A stretch of 64,000 nt of DNA from a phage: NCBI GenBank assembly GCA_021081985.1, contig GCA_021081985.1_3639.1. One strand, written 5' to 3'. This document shows, piece by piece, positions 15,553-53,789 of this stretch; within the stretch, counting starts at the first letter, position 1, and each line of letters starts with the position of its first letter. The translations under genes were made by a program, and so were the position numbers. Under the pieces are notes generated by a model, which was given only the letters and a program-made list of their open reading frames with translations, was not told the origin of the DNA and did not search any database.

Positions 15553-15594
15553 ATAAACATATACATATCAAAGCAGAAATGTACAGAGGATACC

Positions 15595-15786: not shown

Positions 15787-15800
15787 CTCTTAATATAAAT

Positions 15801-15877: not shown

Positions 15878-15882
15878 ATTAT

Positions 15883-16284: not shown

Positions 16285-16416
16285 GAATTAAAGTGGACAC
16301 TAAGGAAGGTCGTGGCTGAGTAAACGGTAAGACACTCTCGACATGTAAAGGTTCCTTCGCCACTTTTCTCAAATAACTATAATAATAATCCAATCAATCT
16401 CCTCTCCTATGCCTAA

Positions 16417-16440
16417 CCCCGCCTCTTGCGGGGTTTTTCT
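16417..16440 (+). terminator. rho-independent terminator at end of tRNA island
   Basis: CCCCGC-ctctt-GCGGGG followed by TTTTTCTTT. Confidence 0.7.
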
Positions 16441-16486
16441 TTATGTGCTAGTCTTTACGCATCTTGTTTTGTACTTAAGGATAGCT

Positions 16487-17848
16487 AAGATGTTGCATGT
16501 TTTCAAAAAAGAAGATTTTCAAAGAGAGTATGACATTTTGTGCTCTTTTATACCAAAAGGTGTTTATGATTTATTGTCAAAGCTGGATGTTAAGATAGCT
16601 GGCGGTGCAATAACCTCTTTGTTCTCTAATAGTAAAGTCAACGATCTTGATTTGTATTTCCCATCTTGGGAAAGCCTTGAGATATTCATTGCGTACATGA
16701 TGGATAAAAGACTCTTGTCAGGGAAATATGATTTGTCTAAGAAAACAAATGGCTGGGCGTCAGATCAAAAAATAGCATTTAGGCATTTCTATAAACTTGA
16801 TCACGGTGATCCAGCATTTTCAAATTTTACAGATCCTCTTTCTATAGGTAGAGAATATGACAATGAATACGATTATTTATGTGATGAAGATGATAATTTG
16901 CCAACCATGAAAAAGGTTGGTGTGACAGATAAGAGTGTGATGTTTTACTTTGGACAAGAGCCTGTCTTTCAATGTGTGGCTGTGGATGTGTTCAAAACAA
17001 CAGAAGACATCTTTAGCAAATTTGATTTTACAATAAATATGGGTGCTTTTAACTTCAAAGATGGTGTGTGGGAATTTAATAGCAATTTCTTAAAACATAT
17101 TGCTCAAAGAGTTTTGGTTGTAAATCATAAAACTGAATACCCGATTATGTCACTTTTGAGATCTGAAAAATACAAATCTCGTGGCTATACAATTTCGAAA
17201 AAAGAGACAATGAAACTGGCTATGACCATTGCTAACCTTCAGATAGAAGGTTGGGAATCGGCAAAGTCACATCTTAGCGGGATGTACGGAATGAAACTGT
17301 CAGATATTTTTGATGAGACAAAACAGTTTTCACTTGATTCTTTGGTTGAGTGCCTAGACAGATTAGAATCTTGTTGCCAGCAGGTAGACAAAAATGTTAC
17401 CCCTGTGCAACCGTTGCCGTTTAATGATGTATCTAAAGTTAATATGTTTAATATTTTTCAAAGATTAAGAAAAGCAACAGGCAGGAAATACTTTACAAAA
17501 CTATATGGGGTTTGTCCTGCTGAAGTTTTCTATCTTATGATGCCAACAAAAGATACACATTATGTTGGGCTTTACAAAGAAGATATAGCAAATAATTTTC
17601 CCACTCTCAGACTTTATGTTGATGAGAAGAAGGCAAGAGAATATTACGAATACCTGTGTGAGTGTGGTAAGACAGATGGTTATGGATGCCTAATGTATAA
17701 ACCTGGGGCAGTTCTCTTAGATGTCTCAATAAGTGATCCATCTAAGATGCAATACGATATCATAACTGATGAGATTAATATTTATGAAAACAGAAAAACA
17801 ACATTGAAAATTGAAAACATTATTGTGTGTGATGGGGATATATCATGA
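16487..17848 (+). CDS. hypothetical protein, possible Pol-beta-type nucleotidyltransferase fold
   Basis: ORF track 16409..17848 starts inside the terminator; likely start is ATG at 16487 with RBS AAGGAT. N-terminal GGAITSLFSNSKVNDLDLYF fits the G[GS]-x9-13-DxD signature. Confidence 0.45.
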   Translation, partial: KMLHVFKKEDFQREYDILCSFIPKGVYDLLSKLDVKIAGGAITSLFSNSKVNDLDLYFPSWESLEIFIAYMMDKRLLSGKYDLSKKTNGWASDQKIAFRHFYKLDHGDPAFSNFTDPLSIGREYDNEYDYLCDEDDNLPTMKKVGVTDKSVMFYFGQEPVFQCVAVDVFKTTEDIFSKFDFTINMGAFNFKDGVWEFNSNFLKHIAQRVLVVNHKTEYPIMSLLRSEKYKSRGYTISKKETMKLAMTIANLQIEGWESAKSHLSGMYGMKLSDIFDETKQFSLDSLVECLDRLESCCQQVDKNVTPVQPLPFNDVSKVNMFNIFQRLRKATGRKYFTKLYGVCPAEVFYLMMPTKDTHYVGLYKEDIANNFPTLRLYVDEKKAREYYEYLCECGKTDGYGCLMYKPGAVLLDVSISDPSKMQYDIITDEINIYENRKTTLKIENIIVCDGDIS

Positions 17849-18246
17849 TATGGTTTAAAACGCTGTTAACTTTCTTTTCTAGGAACATAAAACAGATAGG
17901 TGTTGTTTTGTGTTGTGTGGTTCTCGTCTGTGGTATCTTGGGGATAAAACATTGGTATAATGACCAGTTAACATCGTCCTACAACGCAGGTGTCAGCGAC
18001 ACGGATCTTAAATGGGAGAGGATTAACCAGCAAGTTAGAGATCACAACAACGCTTTTAAAAAACAACAGCAGGATAAGATCGATGAGTTGTCAACCATGT
18101 TGGTGAAAGAGAGAGAAATTAATAACCAACTGAAAGAAGACCTTGATAAAAAGGTTAAAAGTTATAGCAAAACACAAGCAGGAAAACAGGTTTGCCTCGA
18201 TAACCAGTTTGTTGATATCTATAACGACAGTTTGGGGTCTAAATGA
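17845..18246 (+). CDS. i-spanin-like protein
   Basis: 133 aa; N-terminal transmembrane helix then charged coiled-coil; 4-nt overlap with a lipoprotein gene. Confidence 0.5.
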   Translation: MIWFKTLLTFFSRNIKQIGVVLCCVVLVCGILGIKHWYNDQLTSSYNAGVSDTDLKWERINQQVRDHNNAFKKQQQDKIDELSTMLVKEREINNQLKEDLDKKVKSYSKTQAGKQVCLDNQFVDIYNDSLGSK

Positions 18247-18536
18247 AAAAGTATGTTATCATGGTTCCTTTTCTATTGTTTATGTTAACAGGGTGCACTT
18301 CACCACCTGAGAGAGTTGTTCCTGTTGCAAAAGAGATCATAATAAGCGATATCCTAGCAAGACCACCCGCTGAAGCTATGATACCACCGAAAGAACCTGA
18401 AAAATTGCCAGGTGGTCTTAGTAATGCAGATGCTATCGAGGTGATTAAGAAAAACAACATTAAGGCTGCTGAAGATCGTATGAAATTAAGAACGTTACAG
18501 CAGTATGTAAAGACAATATTTTCTTCAGACAAATAG
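18243..18536 (+). CDS. o-spanin-like outer-membrane lipoprotein
   Basis: 97 aa; signal peptide with lipobox LTGC, Pro-rich mature region. Confidence 0.55.
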   Translation: MKKYVIMVPFLLFMLTGCTSPPERVVPVAKEIIISDILARPPAEAMIPPKEPEKLPGGLSNADAIEVIKKNNIKAAEDRMKLRTLQQYVKTIFSSDK

Positions 18537-18631: not shown

Positions 18632-19978
18632 TTGAGTAAAGTATTTGGACCTGCCAGTCCTAAACAAAAAATGATTTTGGAGAGTAAAGCCCAAATTCTA
18701 ATAATTGGCGGGGCCGCCGGGTGTTTGTCTAAAGACCACGAGGTGTTGACACCATCTGGCTGGATTAAGATATCAGAATGGTCAGGACAGGACATTCTGC
18801 AATATGATAAAGCCACTGGGGAGGCTAAATTTATCCCTCCTTTAGAGTTTGTTAAACTCCCTTGTGAAAAACTTACAAGAATAGAAGGTAATGGTATTTG
18901 TCAAGAGCTATCTGACGAACATACTGTGATTTATAAACCAGACTATAAATCACAGCCAAGAACACTTTCTTTTTCTGAAGTGGCAGAAAGACATAACAAC
19001 TCTGTTAAAAAAGGTTGGACAGGTAAGTTCATAACTACATTTAACTATGATGGGCCTGGGATAGACATGACAGAAGGGGAATTAAGGCTTCAGGTTGCTG
19101 TCATGGCTGATGGGAGAGTTGTTAAAGAAGGGAAAGATAATTATACACAGATGCGCTTTGCTAAAAAGCGTAAATATGACCGCTTAATCGAACTTTGTAA
19201 AAAGTTTGGATTAAGATATGAAGATAGAGGATCAAAACCCAGTGAAAGATATACCACTGGGGAACAGTACGAGGTCATTGTATGGCCTAAATATCCTGAT
19301 AAAAAATTTACAGAGAAATACTATCAGTGTTCAAATGAACAACTGGAGATAATACTTGATGAGATTTTTCATTGGGATGGTTCTTTTTGTAAGCCATATG
19401 GCGGTAAAACACATAATAGCTTTACAGGTAGATATTTTACTGCTCATAAGACGAACGCTGATTTTGTTCAGTTTATAGGATCTTCTCTTGGTTATAATAC
19501 CACCATAAGCCATGATACAAGAAGTGGAAAGGACAGTTATACTGTTAATATTATGGCTAGAGGAAAAGGATTAAGGTCACTGGCTAATAAAGACAGAAAA
19601 GCTGAGTTTAAAGAGTTTATACCTACGGATGGGTTTAAATACTGCTTTGTAACACAAACAGGTTTCTTTGTTACCAGACTAGAAGATTGTGTGGTTGTCA
19701 CTGGGAATAGTGGAAAATCATATCTCCTACAATTGATGCCGCTTGCTTATGTCGATGACCCGCAGACAGCATGTATAATGTTTCGTAGGACAACACCTCA
19801 ATTGACAGGTGCAGGTGGACTTTTTGATACAGCGAAAAGTATTTATTTGCAACTCGATAAGGAATGGAAGCCGAAGTTCAGGGAGAAAGCTCTGGAAGCA
19901 ATTTTCCCATCTGGGGCAAAGGTGTTGTGGAGACACATGGAGTATGAGAATAACAAATTAGATCATCAGGGTGAATAG
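18632..19978 (+). CDS. terL: terminase large subunit, 5' part (N-extein, intein, C-extein segment)
   Basis: TTG start with RBS GGAGG; Walker A split as IIGGAAG | intein | SGKSYLL; translation stops at 19978 where the putative intron begins. Confidence 0.75.
   Translation: MSKVFGPASPKQKMILESKAQILIIGGAAGCLSKDHEVLTPSGWIKISEWSGQDILQYDKATGEAKFIPPLEFVKLPCEKLTRIEGNGICQELSDEHTVIYKPDYKSQPRTLSFSEVAERHNNSVKKGWTGKFITTFNYDGPGIDMTEGELRLQVAVMADGRVVKEGKDNYTQMRFAKKRKYDRLIELCKKFGLRYEDRGSKPSERYTTGEQYEVIVWPKYPDKKFTEKYYQCSNEQLEIILDEIFHWDGSFCKPYGGKTHNSFTGRYFTAHKTNADFVQFIGSSLGYNTTISHDTRSGKDSYTVNIMARGKGLRSLANKDRKAEFKEFIPTDGFKYCFVTQTGFFVTRLEDCVVVTGNSGKSYLLQLMPLAYVDDPQTACIMFRRTTPQLTGAGGLFDTAKSIYLQLDKEWKPKFREKALEAIFPSGAKVLWRHMEYENNKLDHQGE
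18722..19708 (+). mobile_element. intein in terminase P-loop (329 aa), with LAGLIDADG-like endonuclease motifs
   Basis: Begins CLSKDHEVLT (block A-like Cys1), ends VVVTGN followed by Ser+1; internal LQVAVMADGRV and LDEIFHWDGS; flanking residues reconstitute GGAAGSGKS. Confidence 0.7.
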
Positions 19979-21162
19979 CTTGCCCTTCGTGCCTATAACG
20001 GTGGAACTCCCTATGGGAAAATACCGTGCCACAGAATATGGAAATATAAAATCTGGGTGTAACGACTATCTCCGATGAGTGTAGGAGAGTAGAATCACAA
20101 GCGATTGGTGATCCAAACGGCACGCCAAGGATGGAAGATATAGTCTGTTCCACATGGAAACATGTGGCGGGTGTTTTAGCACACCGCCTCAGTGTAGCGA
20201 ACTGAGGGGACAATAAGTTGCAGTATACCTTTATAGGTTTTGATGAGGGTTGGTATTAGCTCTCTTTAAACCTCCCTAATTGTCGGGGAAACCTTTATTG
20301 TTTACATAACCAAGCAAATGTGGTAACATGTTTGTGGCCTACACTAACTATGTAGGGTATGGTAATATCATGTAAAATTAGGTAATCCGCAGCGAAGCAT
20401 CCCTATGGGATGAACGTTCAACGACTATCGCTTACGGGCGTTAGGGCCAAGCGGTGAGGGAAACCTCCAGTCTTTCAGACTGCCGAAATGGGAGGATATT
20501 TGCGTAATAATATTAAAAAATGTGTTGACTGCCATAGAGAACTTCCTCTTGATAAATTTTTTCTTTCATCAAAAAGTAGTGATGGATATTCTGGAGCTTG
20601 TAAAGAATGCTACATGTATTATAGACTTAACAACTCCAGAAAGAATAAGGATATGATTAAGAAAGAGGATGCTGCCATGTTTATACAAGATTTGGTATCA
20701 TCTGGTGAACTTTTCGAATGCAAAACTTGCCGTAAGAAGTTTTTAGCTGATAATTTTTATACTAAGAGAGATTATGGTAAAGTGTATCTTGCAACAAATA
20801 GATGTAAAAGATGTGAAAAGTTTTACCAAATAGAGAGAAAGTTTGGCATCTCTGAGGAATATTACTTTTCAATGTTGGAAAGGCAGGGGTTTAAGTGCGA
20901 GATATGTAAAATACCTTTGGAAGATTATAAAAATCAAGGGTATAGAGATTTTTTCTCCGTAGATCATGACCATAAGACAGGGAAGATTAGAGGTTTGTTA
21001 TGCGATAAGTGTAACAGGGCTTTGGGATTTTTCGGAGAAAATGAGGAAACACTTTTAAATGCCGCAGAATATATACGCAAATATAAGATATAGTCTGGTC
21101 TGCATGGTGACATGCAGCAGCACGTAGTGGTGCGGGATAAGAGTAGCGATCTTATCTGAACA
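19979..21162 (+). mobile_element. putative group I intron carrying an HNH homing endonuclease ORF
   Basis: Non-coding structured flanks around the HNH ORF; 38-nt core (20383-20420) and 3' segment (21114-21162) nearly identical to sequences in the DNA polymerase interruption; terminase frame reopens right after an in-frame TGA at about 21160. Boundaries approximate. Confidence 0.5.
20488..21093 (+). CDS. HNH homing endonuclease
   Basis: 201 aa; Cys-rich N-terminus and HNH motif SVDHDHKTGKIRGLLCDKCN. Confidence 0.8.
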   Translation: MGGYLRNNIKKCVDCHRELPLDKFFLSSKSSDGYSGACKECYMYYRLNNSRKNKDMIKKEDAAMFIQDLVSSGELFECKTCRKKFLADNFYTKRDYGKVYLATNRCKRCEKFYQIERKFGISEEYYFSMLERQGFKCEICKIPLEDYKNQGYRDFFSVDHDHKTGKIRGLLCDKCNRALGFFGENEETLLNAAEYIRKYKI

Positions 21163-34276: not shown

Positions 34277-35689
34277 ATGGCTTATAATGACAAGGTGGTT
34301 GATGTAACAGTCACACTTGGTACTCAACCAATCGACACAAAAGGGTTTGAAACCCCACTGTTCCTTGCGATCCATAATGTCTTCCCAGAAAGAGTTCGTG
34401 CTTATACCGAACTTAGTCAATTAGTTGATGATGGATTTGCTGTTGGAACACCTGCATATAATTATGCATCTAAGGCATTTTCTGGAACATTCCGTCCACA
34501 ATATCTGATGATTGGTCGCCAAGGCTTCACCAATACGGTTGTGGATTTTACAGACCAGACAAACACAGACCCAGAAACACCTGTAGCTCTAAACTTTGTG
34601 ACAGGGGCTTATCAAAAGAGCATACTTGTCAATGTAAATGCATCTTCAGAGCCTTCTACAATTGCTACATCTCTGGCTGACGCTATTAATGCGGATACAA
34701 CGCTGAAGACTGTACTTACGGCAACAGCAAGCGAGGCTAAAGTAACAATTGCCCCAAAAGATAGTGGCAAGTTTAGTGTTGGTAAAGACAGCGGAAATAT
34801 GGTCATCACCAATACCTCCGATGAGACAGTTTCTTCTGTTCTTCCGCAGGTTATGACCGCAAATGAGAACTGGTATTTTGTCAGCACTGAGTCACACACA
34901 AAAACATCTATCTTAAGTGCCGCCGCATTCGCCGCTGCAAATTACAAGATGCATGTCTACTCAACTGCGGATGAAAAATCTAAAACTGCTGATAGTGATT
35001 CCATCGCAGATGAACTGAAAGCTCTGCAATACGACACCTCTATTGGTATGTACGATCCGCTGGCAGACAGTGCCTATCCAGAAGGAGGAATTATCGGGGC
35101 GATGGCCTCAAATGATCCTTCCTATGGGGATTCTATCCACCTGAAGACTATGGACGGGGTTGTTGCTCCAACCTTGAGTGCAACGGAACGTATGACTATC
35201 TGGGGTAAGAATCTGAACTTCTACCGCATGATTAATGGTGTAGGATCCTTCTATGAAGGCAAATGCGCTTCCGGCAATTATGTAGATGTTGTGAGATTTG
35301 GTCACTGGCTTAAGTTCCGCACCGAAGAAAGTGTTTTCGGATATATGTCCCGCAGATCCAACATGGGCCTGTCTGTTAAAATGAGTGATGATGACCTCCC
35401 TAACCTGAAGTCTGTCATCATGAATAACCCTATCAACGTAGGTATTTCTAACGGAGCTATTTTAACAGGTTATGATGAGGTTAACAAGGTCTTCTTCGAC
35501 CCTGTAATCACAATCCCTCTGCGTGGAAGCATACCTACTAACGATCTGGCAGCACGTACACTTAACAACGTGAAAGTGGAACTGGTATACAACACACCAC
35601 TACATTTTGTCAAGATCCGTATGACTGTCATGCTGGACAAAACAGGTTCAAATTCTGGTAACGCACAGACAGTAACAGCAGGAGTGTAA
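34277..35689 (+). CDS. tail sheath protein
   Basis: 470 aa, followed by a ~150-aa tube-sized gene, chaperones and tape measure (PBSX/Mu-like order); by position and size. Confidence 0.5.
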   Translation: MAYNDKVVDVTVTLGTQPIDTKGFETPLFLAIHNVFPERVRAYTELSQLVDDGFAVGTPAYNYASKAFSGTFRPQYLMIGRQGFTNTVVDFTDQTNTDPETPVALNFVTGAYQKSILVNVNASSEPSTIATSLADAINADTTLKTVLTATASEAKVTIAPKDSGKFSVGKDSGNMVITNTSDETVSSVLPQVMTANENWYFVSTESHTKTSILSAAAFAAANYKMHVYSTADEKSKTADSDSIADELKALQYDTSIGMYDPLADSAYPEGGIIGAMASNDPSYGDSIHLKTMDGVVAPTLSATERMTIWGKNLNFYRMINGVGSFYEGKCASGNYVDVVRFGHWLKFRTEESVFGYMSRRSNMGLSVKMSDDDLPNLKSVIMNNPINVGISNGAILTGYDEVNKVFFDPVITIPLRGSIPTNDLAARTLNNVKVELVYNTPLHFVKIRMTVMLDKTGSNSGNAQTVTAGV

Positions 35690-35692
35690 TAA

Positions 35693-36166
35693 ATGAATAC
35701 AGCTATTCTAACGCCGTATGCATATGACCCTAAAAAAGTAAAACTGTATCTGATGACTCAAAGAGTAACAGGATTCGCAGCGGACACGAAAATTGTTGTG
35801 TCCCGTAATGAAGACAATATCATCCCCCACATGGGGGTTGATGGTGAGCTATCTGCTGCACTGTCCCGTAACCAATCTGGTGTTATGACGGTTTCTCTTC
35901 AGAATACAGCATCATGGAATGGTAATTTAGCAAACTGGCAAAAACAAGCATCCGTAACTGGCCTTATTTTCTTCCCTGTTCTTCTGGAAGGTTCTCAAGG
36001 TATGGGCTTGAGTACAATTGGATGGATTCAGAAACAGCCTGACCTTACTTACGGAACGGAAGTTGGTCAGATGGACTGGGAAATTGGTATTCTGGATGCT
36101 TGGTTGAGTCCTGATACTCTGTCCTCTGTTGGCTTCGGCCTCGCTGGACTTTCCGGTATTATTTAA
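35693..36166 (+). CDS. tail tube protein
   Basis: 157 aa immediately after the sheath candidate. Confidence 0.5.
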   Translation: MNTAILTPYAYDPKKVKLYLMTQRVTGFAADTKIVVSRNEDNIIPHMGVDGELSAALSRNQSGVMTVSLQNTASWNGNLANWQKQASVTGLIFFPVLLEGSQGMGLSTIGWIQKQPDLTYGTEVGQMDWEIGILDAWLSPDTLSSVGFGLAGLSGII

Positions 36167-36241
36167 TAATTTCGTGTGCCACATGGATGTGGCCTTTATA
36201 CACGTAAGGATAGTTCAACTTCTAAAGACGCAGGAGCGTGC

Positions 36242-36709
36242 ATGAAAATCAGACAAACAACTGAAATTGACCTAGCGGGTCACAACTTTGTTATTACACA
36301 TTGGTCCCCAACAAAAGCATTTAAAAATATTCCTAAGATAGGACGTTATATTGCTGTTCCAATGGCATCCATTTCTGGAGCACTTATGTCTGGTGGGCAG
36401 AATCTTTCTGATGCTATTCCAACAGCAGTATTATACCTATTTGACCAGATGGAGCAAGATAATATTGAAGAACTTTTTGCCTTAATTCTGGACGATGTAT
36501 CTGTTGATGGTATGGCAGGTAAGGTAGACATTGATGATATTTTCCAAGGGAAGATGATGGACCTTATCAAACTCGTGGCGAAAGTGCTGGAGGTTAACTA
36601 CGGCTGTTTTTTCACGAAAGACGGTTTCGCAAGCCTTCAGGATCTTCTGGGACGCCTGGGTCAGACCCATCAACTGAACACGATGGATCAGGCAGAGGAA
36701 GCGGAGTAA
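36242..36709 (+). CDS. tail assembly chaperone
   Basis: ORF track 36176..36709; start moved to ATG after RBS AGGAGC because the 5' end overlaps a hairpin. Confidence 0.4.
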   Translation: MKIRQTTEIDLAGHNFVITHWSPTKAFKNIPKIGRYIAVPMASISGALMSGGQNLSDAIPTAVLYLFDQMEQDNIEELFALILDDVSVDGMAGKVDIDDIFQGKMMDLIKLVAKVLEVNYGCFFTKDGFASLQDLLGRLGQTHQLNTMDQAEEAE

Positions 36710-36744
36710 CACCGTCTAATATTTCGAAAGTTGTCCTGAGAGCT

Positions 36745-36987
36745 ATGAACTATGCAAGAAAAAATAGCTCATTGACTTGGTTCGATTATTTGTGGTGTCG
36801 TGCTCTGAAGAGTTTTAAAGGTGAGTCTTATTCCTCACTTGAGTCTGCTGACATGGCCTACCTGCTTAAACTGAACGAATATCTTGATATCGAAGAGTTT
36901 ATCCAAGACGTACAGGAGAGAGAGGAACAAAGTGCAGCCAATGCTGCCGCCGCTGCAAATAGGTCGCGCCGAGGTAGAAGAGGTTAA
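36745..36987 (+). CDS. hypothetical protein, possible second tail chaperone
   Basis: 80 aa, Ala-rich basic C-terminus, just upstream of tape measure. Confidence 0.35.
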   Translation: MNYARKNSSLTWFDYLWCRALKSFKGESYSSLESADMAYLLKLNEYLDIEEFIQDVQEREEQSAANAAAAANRSRRGRRG

Positions 36988-37038
36988 TCTCAAGCCAGGT
37001 TCCTTCTCGGAACCTGGCTTTTTTATTGAGGAAAATCT

Positions 37039-39411
37039 ATGGCGAATATCATAGTAACTAAAACCGTAAATGCTGTCGAGTGGTCTGTAGATCGCACCAG
37101 TTACGGTCGTGCAATGAAAGCTATAAAATCCCTGAAGAAGGAATGGGAAAAGACTAACAGAGCTTTCACTTCTAATAAAAGTAATCCGGCAGCAATTTAT
37201 AAACGTTCTGCGCAAGAGGCTCGTCTTGTAGCTAAAAGATTACACCAAACTGAACGTGCAGAGCAAGCAAAATCTACGGCACATGCTATTGCAATGGCAA
37301 AAAAGGAAGCTCGTGCTCGTGAACAAATAGCCAAAGTTGAGAGCGCGAGAAGAAAGCAAGCAGTAGCCAGACTAACAAACAGAAGAACACCTGAAGAACA
37401 AAAAGAATATAATGCATTAAAATCAAAGTTGAAGCAGATGGAAAAAACAGGTTCTGGATATGTAACAAATCCAGAAATATCTGCTGCCCGTCAAGCAAGA
37501 TTGCAGCAAGAACTTGCAGCAAGAAAGTCTTCAGGGTCTGCCTCTGGTATTGTTGGGGATCCTAATAGTCGTCACGATCCAAGTCTTGTGGCTGCCCAGA
37601 ACTCTGCTATGGAACGCTATCATAAATCTATTCCGAAAGAAAAAACAGCGGATGAGATTAAGGCAGAAAAAGATGCTAATAAGAAGAAAGAAAGAGAAGC
37701 GTTAAGAGCAGAAAGGATAAAGGCTGCAAAACAATCAACAATTGCTAATGCTGCTGTAAGACTTCGTGCTAAGTATGGTGATGATTTCAGGTCTAAAATT
37801 AAAGGTTATGATGATCTGGAAAAGAGATTTATGCAAAGCCAGACTATGAGAGCTTCTAATTTCCGTGCTGAATTGGCAGCAATGGAAACAGGACTCCGCA
37901 AAGCTAAGGCAAATACACTATCTCTTGATCAAGGATTGAAAAACCTTCGTAGCACATTAATTAGTGTTTCTGCTGCATACGGAGCTTTTAATGCTGCCGC
38001 AAGTGTTGTGAAAACAGGACAATTCTTTCAAGGCATGGAAGCTACCATGTTAATGGTTTCTGATGACTCAGAAGAAGCAGCGAAAAGAATACAGTTTGTT
38101 CGGGAGCAATCTTACAGATTGGGTTTGAATTTAAAAACCGCCGCCCAAGGTTATACCCAAATGTCCATATCTGCCAAAGGTGTTTTGAGCAAGGCGCAAA
38201 ATGACGAACTGTTCAAAGGTTTCTCAGAATATGCTACTGCACTTCAGGTTGATCCTGTAAAATACCAGCGTGGTATTACCGCTATCCAACAAATGATGGG
38301 TAAAGGTCAGATCATGGCTGAAGAATTAAAACAGCAGTTAGCCGAGGGTATTCCTGGTTCTCTTGATGTATTCCTTAAAGCCACACAAGAAGCATTCAAT
38401 GATTCATCTATAGACATTGCAAAATTAATGGATATGATGAAGAATGGAGAGCTAAAGGCTTCAAAAATTCTTCCTTTGGTCGCTAAGTATTATGCCGAGG
38501 CTGCAAGAAAAGGTGGTGCACTTACCAAGGCACAACAAAGCAACCGTGTTGCTATGCAGCGTTTACAACAAACATGGATGAACTTTCAAAATAAGATATT
38601 TGAAAGTGGATTTGGGGATGAATTAACTAAAACGTTTAATGATTTGTCTCACATGTTGGATGCTAAAGGACCGTTAGCTGAGAAAGTTGGACAATTTACT
38701 TCTGGATTCATAAAGGGCTTTATGGATATCGCACATACGATATCTAATGTCTGCATTTTTATAAATGCAGAATTAAACATGTATATCCCACAATGGATAA
38801 AGAAAAGTGAGACATTCCAAAAAGCGACTAACTGGGTAGGTTGGGGTCTCGGTGCTCTATTCTTCGCGACTTCCTTGGTTAGAGTATTCAGAATCTTGGC
38901 TAAAATTGCTGGAATAACGGGAACATTGAAAGTATTGAAGGATATCTTTGGTGATGGTGACGATAAACCTAAAAATCCAAGAAAACCAAGAATACCAAAA
39001 TTCCTGAGACGCGGTAAAGGTTGGCTCGGTTTAATAGCAACAGCCGCTATAGCAGCAACAGGTTTGGATGTTGATGACTCCGAAGAACCAAGTTCTGACC
39101 AAATACCTACAAAATCAATGCAGGAAGATTTTGTTAAGAACAGGAGTATTTCAGGCGGCCTTTCTCAATGGTGGGATAGTTTATGGGCTGGGCATATGCA
39201 GGATAAAGCCAACTATCTTCAATCCCATAATCTAATGCCTGGCGGATCTGCTACAGGTCAAACTGTAGCTCCTATGGTTATTCCTACCGAGCCTGTCAGT
39301 GGTGAAATAACAATTAAAATAGATGCTGGAGAATTACGGAATATGATTGACCAGCAAATAGAGACAGCTAATATGGATAACATTAATCTTATTCTTGCTG
39401 TCCCTCAATAA
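37039..39411 (+). CDS. tail tape measure protein
   Basis: 790 aa; long Ala/Lys/Glu-rich helical N-terminus, internal hydrophobic segment, located between chaperones and baseplate genes. Confidence 0.8.
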   Translation: MANIIVTKTVNAVEWSVDRTSYGRAMKAIKSLKKEWEKTNRAFTSNKSNPAAIYKRSAQEARLVAKRLHQTERAEQAKSTAHAIAMAKKEARAREQIAKVESARRKQAVARLTNRRTPEEQKEYNALKSKLKQMEKTGSGYVTNPEISAARQARLQQELAARKSSGSASGIVGDPNSRHDPSLVAAQNSAMERYHKSIPKEKTADEIKAEKDANKKKEREALRAERIKAAKQSTIANAAVRLRAKYGDDFRSKIKGYDDLEKRFMQSQTMRASNFRAELAAMETGLRKAKANTLSLDQGLKNLRSTLISVSAAYGAFNAAASVVKTGQFFQGMEATMLMVSDDSEEAAKRIQFVREQSYRLGLNLKTAAQGYTQMSISAKGVLSKAQNDELFKGFSEYATALQVDPVKYQRGITAIQQMMGKGQIMAEELKQQLAEGIPGSLDVFLKATQEAFNDSSIDIAKLMDMMKNGELKASKILPLVAKYYAEAARKGGALTKAQQSNRVAMQRLQQTWMNFQNKIFESGFGDELTKTFNDLSHMLDAKGPLAEKVGQFTSGFIKGFMDIAHTISNVCIFINAELNMYIPQWIKKSETFQKATNWVGWGLGALFFATSLVRVFRILAKIAGITGTLKVLKDIFGDGDDKPKNPRKPRIPKFLRRGKGWLGLIATAAIAATGLDVDDSEEPSSDQIPTKSMQEDFVKNRSISGGLSQWWDSLWAGHMQDKANYLQSHNLMPGGSATGQTVAPMVIPTEPVSGEITIKIDAGELRNMIDQQIETANMDNINLILAVPQ

Positions 39412-45259: not shown

Positions 45260-47323
45260 ATGGCAGAGGCTATTTTCACAGCCAGAAGAGAAGATGACTC
45301 TGTAGCTGTCAGCTTTGACTATGAAACAATACCAAACACAGCTATTGCTGGAAGAGATTATACACCCAAGGTAGGTACGGCAACAATTCCTAAAGGGGAA
45401 AAGTCTGTACAGATACCTGTGGAGATAAAACAACATCCTAAAAACTCATTACCAAGAGAATTTACCTTAAAAATGAGTAATCCGTCTTTTGGTGCAAGGC
45501 TAGACAGGCTGGCTTCCAGATGTGTTATTAGCACCAAGGAGGATATGTCTGAGTTGGGGTGGGGAACAAAAGAAGAGAAAATGTTTCTACCTAAATATTG
45601 GACAATTGATTCTCAACCCACAGAAAGTTGCTCTATAATATCTAATGGTAATATACTTACAGCTTATATGACTAATAGAACTGTAAGCGGTTTAGCAGGG
45701 GTTATTTGGAGCACAAAAGATAAGTATGATCATAAAGGGATCTCTTTTCAAGATCACACAGATCTTCGAAACGCTAAGCTGTGGTTCGATATAGAGTTGG
45801 GCGACGGAATGCCTGATTTCAATAATGAGAAATTGACCCCGACATTAACCCTTAAACTTTTAGATGGGGCGACCCATTATATCCCTCTGTACGCTTATGC
45901 TGAAAATATCAGCGAGGATTATAAAAGAGCCACAATCAAACTTGATTTTTCAAATTTAAAATCTGGCCCTGATGTGAACGTGCCAGTGGATACCTCTCAA
46001 GTGGATCAGTTTTTCTTTTCTATGATATCTGAGAAGTATGCAGAAGGAGAAGATGTTGTCCCTAAAGAAAATCAGAACCTTATGTTGAAAATAACTCTTA
46101 AAGAGCCTGATACAGGCTATACAATGATGAGAGTTAATAATTTGACAATTCCTGCACATGATGTGCGTATGTGTACATCCTATGATGACATGTATAACCT
46201 GACACCTGAACGAGTGGTGGACAACTGCTTGAAACTTGGGTACAGGGATATGATAAACCACTATAATGGTATGTCGCATTATTACGAGTTCTCTTGGGAA
46301 AGCTCCGCATGGAAACTGAACAAAGATGTCCCTGTCAATAATGCAACCCTACAATGGATGAATAACTATTTCGCACTGACACGAGCAAATGGTTATAAGG
46401 TTATCAATTCTATTAGTTTTGAGTTGATGAGCACTGTATGTCCGGCAGAATGGGTGCAGCATGATTGGAATGATGCATTGGCTGAAACAGGCTATACACC
46501 TCCTAGTTGGGTATTATCACCTAATATTAATGAGGGTATGCAATATATCCAAAGTGTGATAAATAAAATAGCAGCTACGTGCGAACAAGTTAACCAAGTT
46601 GTTATCATTCAGATAGGAGAACCTTGGTGGTGGTATAATACAGCTACTAACTTACCTTGTGTCTATGATTATACTACAAAAGTTCGTTTTAATGAAGAGA
46701 CTGGATTGTATGCTCAAGACATGGGAACAATTTATGACTTTAAGACCGGAACACCCTATGATGAGTATGTAGATTTTCTAAGACAGTGCTTAGGGGAGCG
46801 AGTGGTAAAATTCGGTGCTGATCTTAAAAAATCTTATCCTAATGCAAAAATAACACTTTTACCGTTTTTACCATCCATTATTGGTAATGGTATTATGGAA
46901 AAGATAAATTTCCCTAGTGGTAGTTATACACCTGAGAATTTTGATTTCTATTGCTCCGAGTGCTATGACTGGTTACTTCAAGGAAAAATGGAAAAATCAT
47001 TTCAGGCTATCACCATTCCGCGAGATGTCTTAAAATTTGAAGAAGATAAGATACATTATCTGGCAGGATTTGTTCCAGATGAAGGGCTAGCACCATTATA
47101 CGGATTTGACCCTAATTCTAATTATAGAGAATATCTTTGGAAAATGATTATAGGGAACATCGTTCTTAATGAGTTTAAGTTTCCAGGTATTTATCAATAC
47201 ATATGGGCGTATCCACAAGTAATGCATGATTCTATAACAGTGCACAACTCTCAATCCGCAGTCTTTCATATGGGGCATACAGCATTGAAAGGGTATTTAA
47301 AAGATACCCCACCAGAAGTTTAA
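45260..47323 (+). CDS. large tail/receptor-binding protein, possibly with an enzymatic domain
   Basis: 687 aa, Trp/Tyr-rich central region (IGEPWWWYNT); function not recognised. Confidence 0.45.
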   Translation: MAEAIFTARREDDSVAVSFDYETIPNTAIAGRDYTPKVGTATIPKGEKSVQIPVEIKQHPKNSLPREFTLKMSNPSFGARLDRLASRCVISTKEDMSELGWGTKEEKMFLPKYWTIDSQPTESCSIISNGNILTAYMTNRTVSGLAGVIWSTKDKYDHKGISFQDHTDLRNAKLWFDIELGDGMPDFNNEKLTPTLTLKLLDGATHYIPLYAYAENISEDYKRATIKLDFSNLKSGPDVNVPVDTSQVDQFFFSMISEKYAEGEDVVPKENQNLMLKITLKEPDTGYTMMRVNNLTIPAHDVRMCTSYDDMYNLTPERVVDNCLKLGYRDMINHYNGMSHYYEFSWESSAWKLNKDVPVNNATLQWMNNYFALTRANGYKVINSISFELMSTVCPAEWVQHDWNDALAETGYTPPSWVLSPNINEGMQYIQSVINKIAATCEQVNQVVIIQIGEPWWWYNTATNLPCVYDYTTKVRFNEETGLYAQDMGTIYDFKTGTPYDEYVDFLRQCLGERVVKFGADLKKSYPNAKITLLPFLPSIIGNGIMEKINFPSGSYTPENFDFYCSECYDWLLQGKMEKSFQAITIPRDVLKFEEDKIHYLAGFVPDEGLAPLYGFDPNSNYREYLWKMIIGNIVLNEFKFPGIYQYIWAYPQVMHDSITVHNSQSAVFHMGHTALKGYLKDTPPEV

Positions 47324-47338: not shown

Positions 47339-48409
47339 ATGGCTACACCAAGTATACCAATCGAGATTTGGGCAGCGGGGGATGTAATTCTCCCTAATAC
47401 TCACGGGGAGAATAAAATAAGACCTATTGACGACCTTTGGTTAAAAGGTTGGGATATGGGAGAAAAACCAGCTTGTGAAGAATTTAACTATGTTCTTCAT
47501 ATGATGACAAGTTGGATAAAATATGTTACAGGGGATCAAATTCCTGAATTAGATACAAGATTTTTAAGAAGAAGTGAAAATCTGTCTGATTTAGCTGACA
47601 AGGAAACATCCAGAGTCAACCTTGATGTGTGGAGCAGATCAGAGGCCGATAACCGTTACGTGAATGTAACGGGAGATACAATGACAGGAGCTTTGTCATT
47701 GCCGAGGTTGAATTTTCAACCTTCTGAAACAGATACTGCGTATATCACAACTACAAATCCGGCTTCTGACTGGACGTACTGGGATTTTGTTCTTGGAGAT
47801 AATCCAGGAACAGCAGGGACAAACGGTGTAGATTCTATACGTTTCCGATTCTCTCCTTCAGGTAACTCTGGGATGTTCACTATGATGGAGCTTAATGCTA
47901 TTAGCTCCTCAGCGGCTTTGTGTAAAGTAACAGGAAATGTTGTTGCCACAGGCACTGTACAAGGAACTAATGTTAATGGCACAAATGCAACATTCACCAC
48001 AACAAGAACATCCTCTTTGACGGCTACAGGACAAATTCAAGGCCAAACTATTGTAGCAACAAGCTCATTAACAACACCATCTGCAAGAGTTAATGGAACA
48101 GCAAACGTAAATGCACTAATTGTAAATAATAACTCTGCTACGGTTGCCGGGAGAAATATCGTAAGATCTGTTAATGGTGTAGGTGCGGATGGTAACGGAA
48201 ATGTTAACTTACCAACAGGAAGTGTTCAGCAAATAAGACTTGGTAATCGTTTCTCTGCTGGGGTTGTTGAGTCTACGTTTTATCCTGGACATGTAATGAC
48301 TGGCTGGGCATTTGGTAATAAAAAGGAATTGAGAGGTGGTTCGTATTACACTGCTCCTTTGCAATATCTTGTGAATGGTCAATGGGTAACAGTGACAAAT
48401 TTAAACTAA
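47339..48409 (+). CDS. tail fiber protein
   Basis: 356 aa, Thr/Asn/Gly-rich repetitive C-terminal half. Confidence 0.5.
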   Translation: MATPSIPIEIWAAGDVILPNTHGENKIRPIDDLWLKGWDMGEKPACEEFNYVLHMMTSWIKYVTGDQIPELDTRFLRRSENLSDLADKETSRVNLDVWSRSEADNRYVNVTGDTMTGALSLPRLNFQPSETDTAYITTTNPASDWTYWDFVLGDNPGTAGTNGVDSIRFRFSPSGNSGMFTMMELNAISSSAALCKVTGNVVATGTVQGTNVNGTNATFTTTRTSSLTATGQIQGQTIVATSSLTTPSARVNGTANVNALIVNNNSATVAGRNIVRSVNGVGADGNGNVNLPTGSVQQIRLGNRFSAGVVESTFYPGHVMTGWAFGNKKELRGGSYYTAPLQYLVNGQWVTVTNLN

Positions 48410-48412
48410 GGG

Positions 48413-48964
48413 GTGCATATGTACAAGATCTATGGTAATTTTCAGCCTTACACACCTGAAAGAACAGAGTATAATTCGGCCTTCATAGATACAGGGGCAG
48501 GTTTCCTTAAAGATAGTGATGGCAGAGATTGGTATGAATTATCAAAAGAACTAGCTGATAACAAAGCGGAAAATCAAAAATTTTTGCTTCTGACTTCGGA
48601 TGATATAGTCCTCTGTGTCTCACAAGACCCGACCGCTTATTTTCCTTATGGAATGAAAATAGTAGTTATTGAGAATCTTACTGTAAACTTAGACCCTAAA
48701 CTCGGGCATATAAAATTTACAGATGGAGAATTTGTTGATTATAACAAAGAAGCGGTAGAACAAGCTCAATCAATTATAGAAACAGAAATGATGTGGGCTT
48801 CTAATCAAATCTCTACCTTGGAGGATATGATCTCTATGGGATTGGGAACAGAGAGTAGAAAAAAATATCTGGAAAAATTAAAAGAGTATCGCATAAAACT
48901 GTTTTCGTTAGACCCTGAAGAAGATATGGATATTTCTTTACCAGACAGACCTTCTAAAAAATAA
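48413..48964 (+). CDS. tail fiber assembly-like protein
   Basis: 183 aa directly after a fiber gene. Confidence 0.4.
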   Translation: MHMYKIYGNFQPYTPERTEYNSAFIDTGAGFLKDSDGRDWYELSKELADNKAENQKFLLLTSDDIVLCVSQDPTAYFPYGMKIVVIENLTVNLDPKLGHIKFTDGEFVDYNKEAVEQAQSIIETEMMWASNQISTLEDMISMGLGTESRKKYLEKLKEYRIKLFSLDPEEDMDISLPDRPSKK

Positions 48965-48975: not shown

Positions 48976-49290
48976 ATGTCTATTGACCTATTTGCTATCT
49001 TAAAAGCCGTATGGGGCGTTTTGACGTTTTTCTTAGTTGGTGTTCTGAAGTTAACATACTCAGACTATAAAAAGACACAGCAACGTCTTGATGAACTTGA
49101 TAGGGACATCATAAGAATTAAGGCAGAGATGGTCACTAAAGAGAAACTTGATGAGATTCTTGATAAAAAACTGAAAGCTGTCCGCGATGATGTTTCAGAT
49201 TTTAGAAAAGACTTAAAAGAGGATGTGAGCAGTTTGAGAGTTGATCTTATAGACCAGCTTAAAATTCTTATAGAGAGTCAAATGAAATGA
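48976..49290 (+). CDS. small membrane protein with coiled-coil
   Basis: 104 aa; N-terminal TM helix LFAILKAVWGVLTFFLVGVL then charged helix. Confidence 0.4.
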   Translation: MSIDLFAILKAVWGVLTFFLVGVLKLTYSDYKKTQQRLDELDRDIIRIKAEMVTKEKLDEILDKKLKAVRDDVSDFRKDLKEDVSSLRVDLIDQLKILIESQMK

Positions 49291-49760
49291 TAAGTTCTGC
49301 ACTGTACTTTATATGCTTTGCAGTGCTACTTCTCGATAATGATAAAGGGATCCGAGCCATGTCAGTATTTGGCATGGTTCATATCGTGGCAGAGAATATA
49401 TTATACTGGTGGTTCTGTTCCCATATCTACGCATTTGACTTGTCACTCTACCTAACCTTTTGTTGGTTCTTGGATATATCTCTGATTTTCTTTACTGCAT
49501 GTGCTTTGACAGGATGGAGAAAAAAGCTAATGCTTGCATTATCTCTTCCTGTTCTGTTTTGCCAAATTTTAGTTATGCAGTTCCCATTTATTTTACCAAG
49601 CGCATTAGGCTTCACGATAAATTCATCATATCCGACATTTATGGAAGCTCTTTTATTATGCGCCGCATACAAAAGCGGTACAATAAAAGAATTGCTTGAG
49701 ACTTCTGTTGTTGTTGGTTTCATAATTATAGCCAGAATTGTTCCTGGAGTAAATTATTGA
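49287..49760 (+). CDS. polytopic membrane protein
   Basis: 157 aa with about four hydrophobic segments. Confidence 0.45.
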   Translation: MISSALYFICFAVLLLDNDKGIRAMSVFGMVHIVAENILYWWFCSHIYAFDLSLYLTFCWFLDISLIFFTACALTGWRKKLMLALSLPVLFCQILVMQFPFILPSALGFTINSSYPTFMEALLLCAAYKSGTIKELLETSVVVGFIIIARIVPGVNY

Positions 49761-49775
49761 GGATTCTAATGTATT

Positions 49776-50039
49776 ATGCTAAAATCAATATTGAAATTTT
49801 TAAAAGATCTTGTCAGATCCCCAGTAAATCCAGAGAAGGCATCTCACACAAAATTTTGGAGTAATATCGGATTAGCTGCAATGACAGCAGTTTTTTTAGA
49901 TTGGGGTTTCAAAGGCACATTAACGGAGTGGTATATGTGGGTGTATGCCCCCACAGTAGCTGCCCCGCAGTTAATAAGTAAGTTAATATCTCTACGTTGG
50001 GGTGTAGAAGCACAACGTAGGGAAGAGTCAGACCAATAA
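49776..50039 (+). CDS. small membrane protein
   Basis: 87 aa with one hydrophobic segment. Confidence 0.35.
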   Translation: MLKSILKFLKDLVRSPVNPEKASHTKFWSNIGLAAMTAVFLDWGFKGTLTEWYMWVYAPTVAAPQLISKLISLRWGVEAQRREESDQ

Positions 50040-51808: not shown

Positions 51809-51835
51809 AAAGGCCACAGCAGTGGCCTTTGTTTT
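51809..51835 (+). terminator. rho-independent terminator
   Basis: AGGCCAC-agca-GTGGCCT followed by TTGTTTT. Confidence 0.65.
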
Positions 51836-51845
51836 AGGAGGATTA

Positions 51846-53789
51846 ATGTATCCAATTCCTTGTTTTTATATCATAATTTCCAATAACCCTCTAGCCAACT
51901 CCATTTCCTTAACCTCCCTCGGTACGTGTCTTAAAGGAGGCAAAGCACAATTAATATGGTCTGTTGTGCCGGAAGGTGCAGACTTGCATGATATAACATT
52001 TACACCAGACAAACCGACGATTGTATCTGTTGATCCTACGGGGCTAGTATCTTTTCTTGAAGATGGTGATTTTATCATTACAATGTCTGCAAAGACTGGC
52101 AAAGGAGACGAAGAAAAGACCTTAACAGCGCAAATCAATGGTCATATCGATACACTACGCATTGATGTTGATCCTATAGGCAGCAGAAGCATTAATGATA
52201 GATTCTGGTTTGTCTACAAAGGCGACCCGTCTTTTGACCCAAGCAATCCGAATCCGAATATGATTGGCTTTAACATCTCTCCAGCAGAAGTTATGGAGGA
52301 GGATGACTTTTATGTCACCGCAGTTTCTGAAACACCTGATATATTAAGTCTGGCTCCTAGTGGTATCATCACATGTGTTAGTAAAGGTGTTGGGCATTGT
52401 GGTATGAAAGGAACCTATAAGGATGTGACAGTAACGACACTTACCGATGTATATGTAGATATAGCACCACAACTTATAAATCCGACTGCTGTAGCCAACA
52501 GTTATGGTGACGTTAAGATAGCGTGGGATGTTCAATTTCCCTCCTTGGATGATATTTATACCGTAGAGGTTTATGATTCTGAAGGGATGGAGGTTGTGTG
52601 GAGTAAGAAAACCAAAGACACATTCGTATTCTTTGATGTTACAGAATCAGTGCCTATCTTTGGATTTGCCCCTACATATCTTAAAGTGGTCATCAAAGGA
52701 TCAGATCCAGAAACACAACCTATATCTTTTAATAATAATGTAACTGTTGACGACTCTTTTGTTAAAGAGGTGCTTGTTTTTGCTGGCGGTGATAACGCAG
52801 CAGCACATTTTAACTCTTTTTCTGGTAGGGATAAAACAAGCCAAAGTGCAACCGTAGCACGTAATGAGTATGCTCTTAGCAAAGGGTTTTACCCAGCAGA
52901 AGTATTACCAATCAATGCCGCATTCATTACATCTTGTGCAGAAGCACAGGCAAACTCCTCTACAGGGTTAGCCACAAATTACTGGTATGACGTTAGTTCC
53001 TCCACAGCAGGTCCGTGTCTAACACAATTCCTTGCGAAGGTTAAACCTTATAAGGATAAAATTAAGGCTGTTTTCTGGTCGTTAGGGGAACAAGATGCCA
53101 TGGTAGCAGCAGCAAAACAGGAGGGGAAACATAGCGATGATGCTCGTTTTCAGACTGCTATGACCGCCATCTTTGAAAATATCCGATCTGTTATCACAAA
53201 TCCTGAAGCTAAGATTGTATTGCAGACACTTGGTAGATGCTTTGATGATAGTGTGGAAGTAGGTGGTGTTGAGTGGTATCGTTATAGAAGTATTCAACAA
53301 CAGTTAGTGGTAGATTCCGGGGGTGAGGTTATAATTGGCTCTTGGGTTGATGGTGCTGAACACTATGGCAATTATGTTGTTTCAGGGGCAGGTGATGGTT
53401 TAAGAATACAGTACCGACCAACAATTTATAAGAATGCCGCAGTATCCTTGGCTAACATGGAGGACTTGTCGAACACACCTCCTGTTTGGGTGGATATGAA
53501 AGTTCCCATGGGAGGAAAGGCAGTAAGGCAAGCAAACCAGGATATTCTTTTATCATGGGATACCAGAGGCTACAACAAGTTCTTTCTTGTTAACTTTGAT
53601 GTCCTGACAGGGGCTGTTATATCCCAACAAACATTGACCACCAATAGTTACACATTTACCTACGCAGATCAAGTAAAACAATACGGGTATGCTGCGGGTA
53701 CAGTTTTGTTTGGTGTTGCATATGTTCAAACAACCAGTAAAGGTGATATTACATCTCCGTTGGCGAAATTCAGTATCAATGTAGCGTGA
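51846..53789 (+). CDS. tail-associated protein, possible C-terminal esterase-like domain
   Basis: ORF track 51822..53789; start moved to ATG after RBS AGGAGG. C-terminal half has VFAGGDN...DGAEHY, loosely SGNH-esterase-like. Confidence 0.45.
   Translation: MYPIPCFYIIISNNPLANSISLTSLGTCLKGGKAQLIWSVVPEGADLHDITFTPDKPTIVSVDPTGLVSFLEDGDFIITMSAKTGKGDEEKTLTAQINGHIDTLRIDVDPIGSRSINDRFWFVYKGDPSFDPSNPNPNMIGFNISPAEVMEEDDFYVTAVSETPDILSLAPSGIITCVSKGVGHCGMKGTYKDVTVTTLTDVYVDIAPQLINPTAVANSYGDVKIAWDVQFPSLDDIYTVEVYDSEGMEVVWSKKTKDTFVFFDVTESVPIFGFAPTYLKVVIKGSDPETQPISFNNNVTVDDSFVKEVLVFAGGDNAAAHFNSFSGRDKTSQSATVARNEYALSKGFYPAEVLPINAAFITSCAEAQANSSTGLATNYWYDVSSSTAGPCLTQFLAKVKPYKDKIKAVFWSLGEQDAMVAAAKQEGKHSDDARFQTAMTAIFENIRSVITNPEAKIVLQTLGRCFDDSVEVGGVEWYRYRSIQQQLVVDSGGEVIIGSWVDGAEHYGNYVVSGAGDGLRIQYRPTIYKNAAVSLANMEDLSNTPPVWVDMKVPMGGKAVRQANQDILLSWDTRGYNKFFLVNFDVLTGAVISQQTLTTNSYTFTYADQVKQYGYAAGTVLFGVAYVQTTSKGDITSPLAKFSINVA

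Follow-up and report, generated by a model that had tools for sequence, protein, structure and literature searches.

In coliphage T4 the holin gene t follows the fibre genes 37 and 38 and lies away from the endolysin gene e, and in T7 the endolysin gp3.5 is encoded far from the holin gp17.5. In the rV5-like phages the holin is an acknowledged gap, none having been identified in the papers on LL12 (PMC6658697), KPP-1 and phiSalP219. The present analysis concerns three consecutive genes, here called A, B and C, which specify putative small membrane proteins within a tail-fibre gene block. They lie in a 64,000-nucleotide stretch of phage DNA (NCBI GenBank assembly GCA_021081985.1, contig GCA_021081985.1_3639.1), the whole of which is referred to below as the window. 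We propose, at a probability of roughly 55%, that C is the holin of this phage and that A regulates lysis in a releasin-like or antiholin-like way. In the broader statement, by which A and C both belong to the lysis genes, we have appreciably greater confidence.

The A-B-C block

The three genes and their immediate neighbours are as follows.

48413–48964, + strand: tail-fibre assembly chaperone (Caudo_TAP), directly 5' of gene A
48976–49290, + strand: gene A, 104 amino acids, with the ribosome-binding site AAGGAG
49287–49760, + strand: gene B, 157 amino acids, its ATG overlapping the stop codon of A by 4 nucleotides (ATGA)
49776–50039, + strand: gene C, 87 amino acids
50050–51804, + strand: tail-fibre gene (PHROG 4549), directly 3' of gene C

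A first-pass annotation, made from the letters of the window alone, had described three open reading frames (ORFs) of 104, 157 and 87 amino acids between a fibre-assembly-like gene and a fibre gene, and both the ORFs and the nature of their neighbours were borne out. It had also assigned one, about four and one hydrophobic segments to the three products, which agrees with A (one) and B (four to five) and undercounts C, in which two are present.

By tblastn, 222 phage records were found to contain A, 107 to contain B and at least 375 to contain C, nearly all at full length; these are not chance ORFs. Between positions 47300 and 51900 the window shows 97.6% identity to Escherichia phage Av-05 (Avunavirus, Vequintavirinae) and approximately 95% identity to phage TH18 and its relatives. 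The surrounding + strand operon consists of baseplate, non-contractile-sheath-like, fibre and fibre-chaperone genes, and the intergenic gaps around the trio and to its neighbours are 10–15 nucleotides. A scan of the trio region revealed no convincing promoter or terminator between these genes and the fibre genes, and the fibre gene downstream shows that the trio is embedded in a structural operon, presumably a late one.

Scans of the three proteins against Pfam, NCBIfam and PADLOC returned nothing except coiled-coil noise. In the case of the PADLOC defence profiles this consisted of matches of A to LeoA/LeoBC (E-values 0.008–0.02), B and C giving no match. None of the three proteins contains a lipobox.

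Gene C and its relatives in lysis cassettes

C possesses two moderately hydrophobic helices, with Kyte-Doolittle maxima of about 1.0–1.5. Its AlphaFold2 model, based on an 83-sequence alignment, is a hairpin of helices 24–46 and 51–86 (mean predicted local distance difference test score [pLDDT] 87), preceded by an amphipathic helix at residues 2–13. The C-terminal tail (RWGVEAQRREESDQ) is hydrophilic and charged, and the distribution of charges favours a predicted topology in which both termini are cytoplasmic (N-in/C-in). Measured against the usual description of a holin – a small inner-membrane protein with at least one transmembrane domain (TMD) and a charged, hydrophilic C-terminus – C has each of these features, its hydrophobicity being moderate.

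The protein belongs to PHROG 1322, which is labelled "membrane protein" and placed in the category "moron, auxiliary metabolic gene and host takeover"; there is no family for it in Pfam or NCBIfam. DUF2644 (PF10841) is not matched by C of the window, which is therefore not a member. Four of 83 distant relatives match this family weakly (best E-value 2e-4), and one precomputed match and one source name refer to it, so that the C family is at most distantly related to DUF2644. Nothing useful was found in the literature on DUF2644, PF10841 or PF26221, the last being a family carried by homologs of B, and a fold search of BFVD with the models of C and B was uninformative.

An exhaustive profile search of 1.84 billion representatives yielded 87 C-family cluster representatives of 68–158 amino acids. 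They share the motif SHTK(F/L)WSN(I/V)(G/A)...T..F...EW..YL..V.G...SK(F/L)LS(L/M)(K/R)YG and hydrophilic tails, and some possess an extra N-terminal TMD, giving 3-helix variants. All 83 of the 83 members scanned match PHROG 1322. By tblastn, a member of the type found in Mu-like phages shows 44.6% identity (E-value 6e-10) to the type found in TH18 and the window. The novelty of the family is judged against Pfam and PHROGs; in TCDB putative Neisserial and beta-proteobacterial holin families are listed, and the C family might be identical to a putative holin family of that database.

Using hhalign, the second helix and tail of C were aligned with the TMD and tail of the T7 holin gp17.5, at P-values of 0.0016–0.0029 and probabilities of 11–16%. 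This similarity is suggestive, at a low probability. Mu gp24 shows no relation to the C family, and the Aeromonas protein "Hol 46", a 67-residue single-TMD holin of phage PZL-Ah152, provides no link to C.

The evidence which carries our proposal comes from the gene neighbourhoods of this family. Genomes and IMG/VR were scanned for related loci with a 22-sequence C-family subset, and ORFs were called in the loci fetched. Of these there were 134, comprising 80 viral contigs and 54 prophage loci, the latter chiefly from Betaproteobacteria (Neisseria, Kingella, Eikenella and Nitrosospira, for example). After dereplication, the nearest upstream neighbour on the same strand was a peptidoglycan hydrolase in 33 of 43 cases and a Mor activator in two. 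The hydrolases represent about nine Pfam families: GH108 (8), CHAP (6), Amidase_2 (5), VanY/M15_4 (5), GH19 (3), Phage_lysozyme (2), M15_3 (2), Amidase_3 (1) and M15_2 (1). The endolysin and C-family genes are separated by no more than 60 nucleotides in 25 of 56 Mu-like loci, often overlapping by 4 nucleotides, with no small membrane-protein ORF intervening. Downstream of the C-family gene there is an i-spanin-like gene, its product a coiled-coil protein with an N-terminal anchor and Rz-type motifs, and a proline-rich ORF with a lipobox lies within 1.3 kb downstream in 72 of 96 loci. Since the adjoining endolysins are devoid of N-terminal hydrophobic signals, these cassettes need a hole-forming holin.

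The annotated records of two cultured phages independently confirm this arrangement. Ralstonia phage RS138 possesses GemA, a late activator, the endolysin gp26, the C-family "membrane protein" gp27 and the Rz-like spanin gp28. In Pseudomonas phage Bise the order is Mor, an M15 hydrolase, the C-family gene, an i-spanin-like gene, an A-like gene for a TMD-plus-coiled-coil protein, one further gene and the small terminase gene. It is classically by such a pattern, one family of small membrane proteins accompanied by many unrelated, signal-less endolysins and followed by spanins, that a holin is recognised. With respect to gene linkage, then, the family behaves as holins do, being found with unrelated endolysin types and with spanins; C of the window does not, since it lies among fibre genes.

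Two other contexts were noted. In the Neisseriaceae prophages L035, L037, L040, L049 and L050, which are Mu-like, a conserved pair of genes encoding a protein of about 322 amino acids and a four-TMD protein of about 160 amino acids is inserted just upstream of the endolysin gene, at positions -3/-4 (in some -2/-3) relative to the C-family gene; the pair resembles a moron and might serve in defence or abortive infection. In the IMG/VR contigs L063–L097, about half of which are 120–155 kb in length and the rest shorter fragments, many being from large uncultivated phages, the C-family protein is a longer version of approximately 125–167 amino acids with an extra N-terminal TMD, and the flanking genes are on the opposite strand and do not include an endolysin.

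Gene A

A begins with a strongly hydrophobic segment at residues ~5–27 (Kyte-Doolittle 19-residue maximum 2.2), followed by some 75 residues of highly charged coiled coil, with 20 lysyl- and arginyl- and 20 aspartyl- and glutamyl-residues. The N-terminal flank of the anchor is acidic to neutral (MSID) and the C-terminal flank basic (K25, K32, K33 and R37), from which an N-out/C-in topology is predicted. The flanking charges are consistent with this in the homologs from rV5, Plateaulakevirus and Phapecoctavirus, and A is accordingly predicted to be a membrane-tethered cytoplasmic protein. It belongs to PHROG 5345, which has no assigned function. No Pfam or NCBIfam family was found for it, the matches in Pfam, NCBIfam and PHROG being coiled-coil noise.

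In 35 of the 134 C-family loci a gene for an anchor-plus-coiled-coil protein of 85–120 amino acids is located two to four genes downstream of the C-family gene. Alignment of the A family with these cassette proteins by hhalign gave a probability of 96% (E-value 4.6e-9) for the part comprising the TMD and first helix, compared with 0.4% for 24 i-spanins, less than 1% for ten column shuffles and 4.8% for the reversed alignment. Reciprocally, a hidden Markov model of the cassette proteins matches the Av-05 copy of A (E-value 4.5e-4). On these profile comparisons A is a distant relative, specifically, of the proteins encoded after the spanins in the cassettes.

The cassette genes occupy the position of the releasin gene gp25 of Mu, and their products share its predicted N-out/C-in topology. 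The DUF2730 proteins, to which the Mu releasin belongs, have been described as N-out/C-in and reported only in transposable phages (PMC9239132). In terms of releasin topology (an N-terminal TMD, N-out/C-in orientation and a cytoplasmic helical domain), A has, by prediction, all three characteristics. In terms of sequence it does not fall within DUF2730, PF10805 being absent from its Pfam matches. Only one of 16 cassette proteins matches PF10805, and neither the A family (2.9% probability by hhalign) nor the cassette proteins gave a significant match to Mu gp25, which was represented by a single sequence, a search for diverse relatives having produced only near-identical ones. For these reasons A is called releasin-like only, by architecture and context, and not a member of DUF2730.

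Gene B and the conservation of the block

B is a polytopic inner-membrane protein with four to five hydrophobic segments, and its gene is translationally coupled to that of A. The AlphaFold2 model is all-helical, with six to seven helices (pLDDT 81). The protein belongs to PHROG 7451, without assigned function, and its homologs carry the precomputed Pfam family PF26221. Neither a Pfam scan nor a fold search revealed similarity to characterised proteins, and no relatives of B were found in the Mu-like lysis loci. The four-TMD proteins of 160 amino acids encoded upstream of endolysins in Neisseria, which are paired with a 322-residue protein, are unrelated to it. B is lineage-restricted, and is possibly an accessory or antiholin-like protein.

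The order fibre–chaperone–A–B–C–fibre is common to PVP-SE1 (gp46–gp41) and CB7 (CB7_31–36), in which the counterparts of A, B and C are gp44, gp43 and gp42, and CB7_33, CB7_34 and CB7_35, respectively. In rV5 and FV3 only A (gp31) and C (gp29) are kept and a second short-fibre paralogue takes the place of B, the order being gp33, gp32, gp31 (A), gp30, gp29 (C) and gp28. In Phapecoctavirus the A-like gene is still 3' of the chaperone, and the C-like gene precedes a baseplate wedge gene. In an Aeromonas phage of the genus Plateaulakevirus, an unannotated 136-amino-acid gene in the position of the chaperone is followed by an A-like gene, a polytopic 146-amino-acid ORF and a C-like gene. From this synteny it follows that A and C form a conserved core and that B is variable. 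C is the best conserved protein of the block across genera, with 85% identity to its counterpart in PVP-SE1 and 64% to that in CB7, compared with 33–67% for the fibres.

Comparison with TH18 revealed no DNA similarity over positions 48229–48961 of the window. The distal part of the fibre gene (47339–48409) and the chaperone gene have been exchanged, the two chaperones being 30% identical. Directly 3' of the exchanged chaperone, A, B and C are 100%, 96% and 99% identical. The boundary of this recombination is sharp: the flanks are approximately 95–96% identical and the downstream breakpoint is at the junction of the chaperone (Tfa) gene and A.

Lysis genes elsewhere in the genome

A pair of spanin genes is present in the window.

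17845–18246, + strand: i-spanin of a two-component spanin pair
18243–18536, + strand: o-spanin of this pair (lipobox LTGC), immediately 5' of the large terminase gene

This pair, already noticed at first reading, is genuine, and in Av-05 the spanin is annotated as "Rz-like spanin". In phages of this group the spanin genes adjoin the terminase gene, and the endolysins are encoded at other sites. A itself was ruled out as an i-spanin on three grounds: its predicted topology is the opposite of that of i-spanins (N-in/C-out), the hhalign probability is 0.4%, and a genuine pair exists here. No endolysin had been recognised beside the spanins, and none is encoded in the window. The suggested search for one elsewhere in the genome was answered from the relative Av-05, where two hydrolases were found and no holin is called beside them. 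One is a SleB-like hydrolase (Av05_00150) with an N-terminal hydrophobic segment, the gene of which adjoins rIIA; the other is a soluble T4-e-like lysozyme, encoded further from rIIA. No holin was found beside the SleB-like hydrolase, the two upstream ORFs being without a TMD. The presence of an endolysin elsewhere does not refute a displaced holin, because the Av-05 endolysins have no adjoining called holin and because T4 and T7 also separate the two genes.

In addition to rIIA, rIIB and the e-like lysozyme gene, Av-05 has an RI-like gene. Its product, the "lysis inhibition" protein Av05_00199 (113290–113592 of the Av-05 record), has a weakly hydrophobic N-terminus. At 35644–37079 of the same record the genes for the small membrane proteins Av05_0064, 0066 and 0067 are found around a non-muralytic "hydrolase".

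Proposed lysis model and alternative explanations

We propose that in this virulent myovirus of the Vequintavirinae the trio forms a lysis module which belongs to the late tail-fibre operon and is set apart from the endolysin genes. Its genes would be expressed late together with the fibre genes, as are t of T4 and 17.5 of T7. C would accumulate late in the inner membrane as an N-in/C-in, two-helix protein (a class-II-type holin), trigger at a set time and permeabilise the membrane, and the soluble T4-e-like lysozyme would then reach the cell wall; the spanins would subsequently disrupt the outer membrane. The coiled coil of A might lie beside the cytoplasmic N-terminal helix and tail of C and act as an antiholin or timing factor. 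Alternatively, A may assist in releasing the secreted SleB-like hydrolase, in the manner of a releasin. B would be a dispensable, lineage-specific accessory membrane protein. The choice of C as holin and A as regulator, like hole formation by the former, regulation by the latter and any role for B, is what we infer from the sequences and their contexts. The first-pass annotation had thought of a displaced holin/antiholin set; for C and A this gains support from the comparative context of the lysis cassettes, while B is without such support.

Several observations weigh against this proposal. The helices of C are weakly hydrophobic, and Octopus and Phobius call a single TMD in the PVP-SE1 homolog gp42. 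No Pfam holin family is matched by C or by 83 distant relatives, and the resemblance of C to the T7 holin and that of A to DUF2730 and Mu gp25 have the low scores given above. In the Vequintavirinae C is not beside an endolysin, so that the argument from context has been carried over from distant relatives (~25–45% identity), and the model for all three proteins is drawn from gene context. In 24 of 56 loci the endolysin gene and the C-family gene are separated by a further small ORF, in some cases with two strong TMDs, and where this is so C could be an antiholin or other accessory protein and not the holin. There are also other candidates: the rV5 paper proposed gp129 and the CB7 paper CB7_82, and Av05_0066, encoded in Av-05 outside the part corresponding to the window, is a classic-looking holin candidate, its 72 amino acids including two strong TMDs and ending in a basic tail. 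Lastly, the T4 counterpart of the Av-05 RI-like protein binds a periplasmic domain of the holin, which C lacks.

Much of this would be accommodated if the trio were lysis-related with C as an antiholin, a timing regulator or the second component of a holin, and with the true holin elsewhere, of the rV5 gp129/Av05_0066 type or else a T-like protein corresponding to the RI-like gene. This we regard as unlikely. The intervening ORFs, the weakly hydrophobic helices, the classic features of the rival candidates and the RI-like protein of Av-05 all speak for it. On the other hand, in RS138 and Bise and in 25 of 56 loci no small membrane-protein gene other than C lies between late activator and spanins, and C is there coupled to a soluble endolysin in need of a holin. 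The rival candidates, moreover, are located among early or middle small ORFs and not in late operons, and gp19 and gp20 of Mu, which were holin candidates of the same kind, have been shown not to be holins (PMC9239132, a paper which describes expression and energy-poison [DNP] triggering experiments with Mu, lambda and phage 21).

That the genes keep to the tail and fibre module throughout Vequintavirinae, Phapecoctavirus and Plateaulakevirus, and that A always lies 3' of the Tfa chaperone, would suit membrane-anchored morphogenetic factors of the fibre or baseplate, or low-copy virion proteins which aid the passage of DNA across the inner membrane. We consider this improbable. Tandem mass spectrometry (MS/MS) of CB7 virions confirmed the neighbouring proteins, and the chaperone and the trio are without MS/MS confirmation; in the rV5 gene table neither gp29 nor gp31 is marked with mass spectrometric evidence. 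A is unchanged where the adjoining chaperone has been exchanged, and in Mu-like phages the C-family and A-like genes lie far from the tail genes and within the lysis cluster. The replacement of the fibre tip and chaperone in TH18, with A, B and C unchanged, argues against both fibre-specific assembly and receptor-specific exclusion.

Very improbable, finally, is a superinfection-exclusion or host-takeover membrane module of the T5 Llp, Cor or T4 Imm/Sp type, blocking receptors or DNA entry of competing phages (an exclusion or injection module had been the other suggestion of the first-pass annotation), for which the proximity to fibre genes, as with llp and cor, the PHROG category of C and the lineage-variability of B might be cited, and against which stand the 96–100% identity of the trio beside the replaced Tfa and tip of TH18 and hence the want of co-variation with the receptor-binding tip, the conservation of the genes across genera with different hosts, the absence of any match in PADLOC, the lack of a promoter of their own and the tight packing in a presumably late operon, which argue against the early expression needed in a virulent phage, the fact that CB7 virion MS/MS confirmed the flanking proteins and none of the trio, and the position of the Mu-like relatives in lysis cassettes and not beside fibres.

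A wider proposal, which is offered tentatively and which we consider rather doubtful, is that C is the founding member, in a major subfamily of therapeutic phages, of a widespread holin family unrecognised by Pfam and PHROGs and extending from Mu-like phages to large virulent myoviruses (Vequintavirinae, Phapecoctavirus and Plateaulakevirus). A might then extend the releasin/DUF2730-like class beyond transposable phages, and the two genes would constitute a conserved lysis-timing unit relocated into the fibre operon beside a hotspot of fibre-tip exchange.

Other features of the window

A perfect, GC-rich palindrome with a 9-bp stem (AAAGGCCAC...GTGGCCTTT) lies at 51809–51830, just past the stop codon of the fibre gene (51804), and overlaps the start of the next listed ORF (51822). 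Inside the late operon this palindrome might function as attenuator or terminator. That ORF (51822–53789) specifies a 655-amino-acid tail protein with a Big_2 domain and a weak SASA/esterase signal, which may be the enterobacterial common antigen (ECA)-targeting deacetylase fibre discussed in the BASEL paper. Upstream, a 687-amino-acid protein (45260–47323) matches NCTSP_N and TIM-barrel_NCTSP (non-contractile tail sheath protein) and Calx-beta.

An ORF of 479 amino acids (16409–17848), the product of which is hypothetical in Av-05, overlaps the start of the i-spanin gene (17845) by 4 nucleotides and is translationally coupled to it. Seven tRNA genes (Ser-gct, Ser-tga, Lys, Asn, Pro, Leu and Phe) are clustered at 14729–15958, upstream of the spanin and terminase region; the long ORFs on both strands of this interval are probably spurious. 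The large terminase gene (18632–21093) looks interrupted, in that a 448-amino-acid ORF contains the N-terminal part of the terminase followed by unrelated sequence, and an ORF of 201 amino acids with HNH/zinc-finger-like character is present at 20488–21093. This fits the large terminase gene of rV5, which has been described as split by an intron and a homing endonuclease.

The correspondence between the Av-05 record (NC_025830, 120.9 kb) and the window is limited to blocks, which differ in order and orientation, and the record may be rearranged or incompletely assembled. The TH18 genome is 133.9 kb in length.

Implications

Among the phages of E. coli, Salmonella and Klebsiella that are isolated for biocontrol and therapy, the rV5-like phages and their relatives are some of the most frequent. 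A concrete holin candidate supported by gene context (rV5 gp29, PVP-SE1 gp42 and 49776–50039 of the window) makes the gap directly testable. If the proposal is correct, PHROG 1322, with at least 375 phage records, gains a function; the known holin families are increased by one which occurs with at least nine types of endolysin; a first hint is obtained of releasin-like proteins acting outside the transposable phages; and a lysis-timing gene becomes available for the engineering of rV5-like phages.

Comparison with known systems

Like Llp of T5, Cor of phi80 and N15, and Imm and Sp of T4, the products of the trio are small envelope proteins encoded beside receptor-binding genes. They differ from these in lacking a lipobox, in showing no co-variation with the receptor-binding protein, in having no promoter of their own and in possessing relatives in lysis cassettes. 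B may have an analogue in LysA of P2, which is also a polytopic membrane protein and the phenotype of which is antiholin-like.

Mu gp25 and the DUF2730 proteins resemble A in possessing an N-terminal TMD, an N-out/C-in topology (predicted in the case of A) and a cytoplasmic helical domain within a total of about 100 amino acids. DUF2730 has been reported only in transposable phages, whereas the phages carrying A are large virulent myoviruses, in which its gene lies apart from that of the endolysin; in the window it follows a fibre chaperone, so that it departs from the releasins in gene position.

The likeness to T4 extends to the rIIA/rIIB, e-like lysozyme and RI-like genes, all of which Av-05 likewise possesses. 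The T4 holin itself, with one TMD and a large periplasmic domain, is unlike A, B and C, the soluble domain of A being predicted to be cytoplasmic.

The class II holins, with two TMDs and an N-in/C-in topology (as in S68 of phage 21), resemble C, which is small, with two helices, a charged C-terminal tail predicted to be cytoplasmic and, as proposed, late expression. The TMDs of typical holins are more hydrophobic than the helices of C. The division of holins into class I and class II is paralleled within the C family by the 3-helix variants. In gene layout the closest parallel is T7, in which the fibre gene gp17 is followed by the holin gene gp17.5 and then by spanin genes adjoining TerL; in the window, correspondingly, the trio stands beside the fibre genes and the spanin genes are adjacent to TerL.

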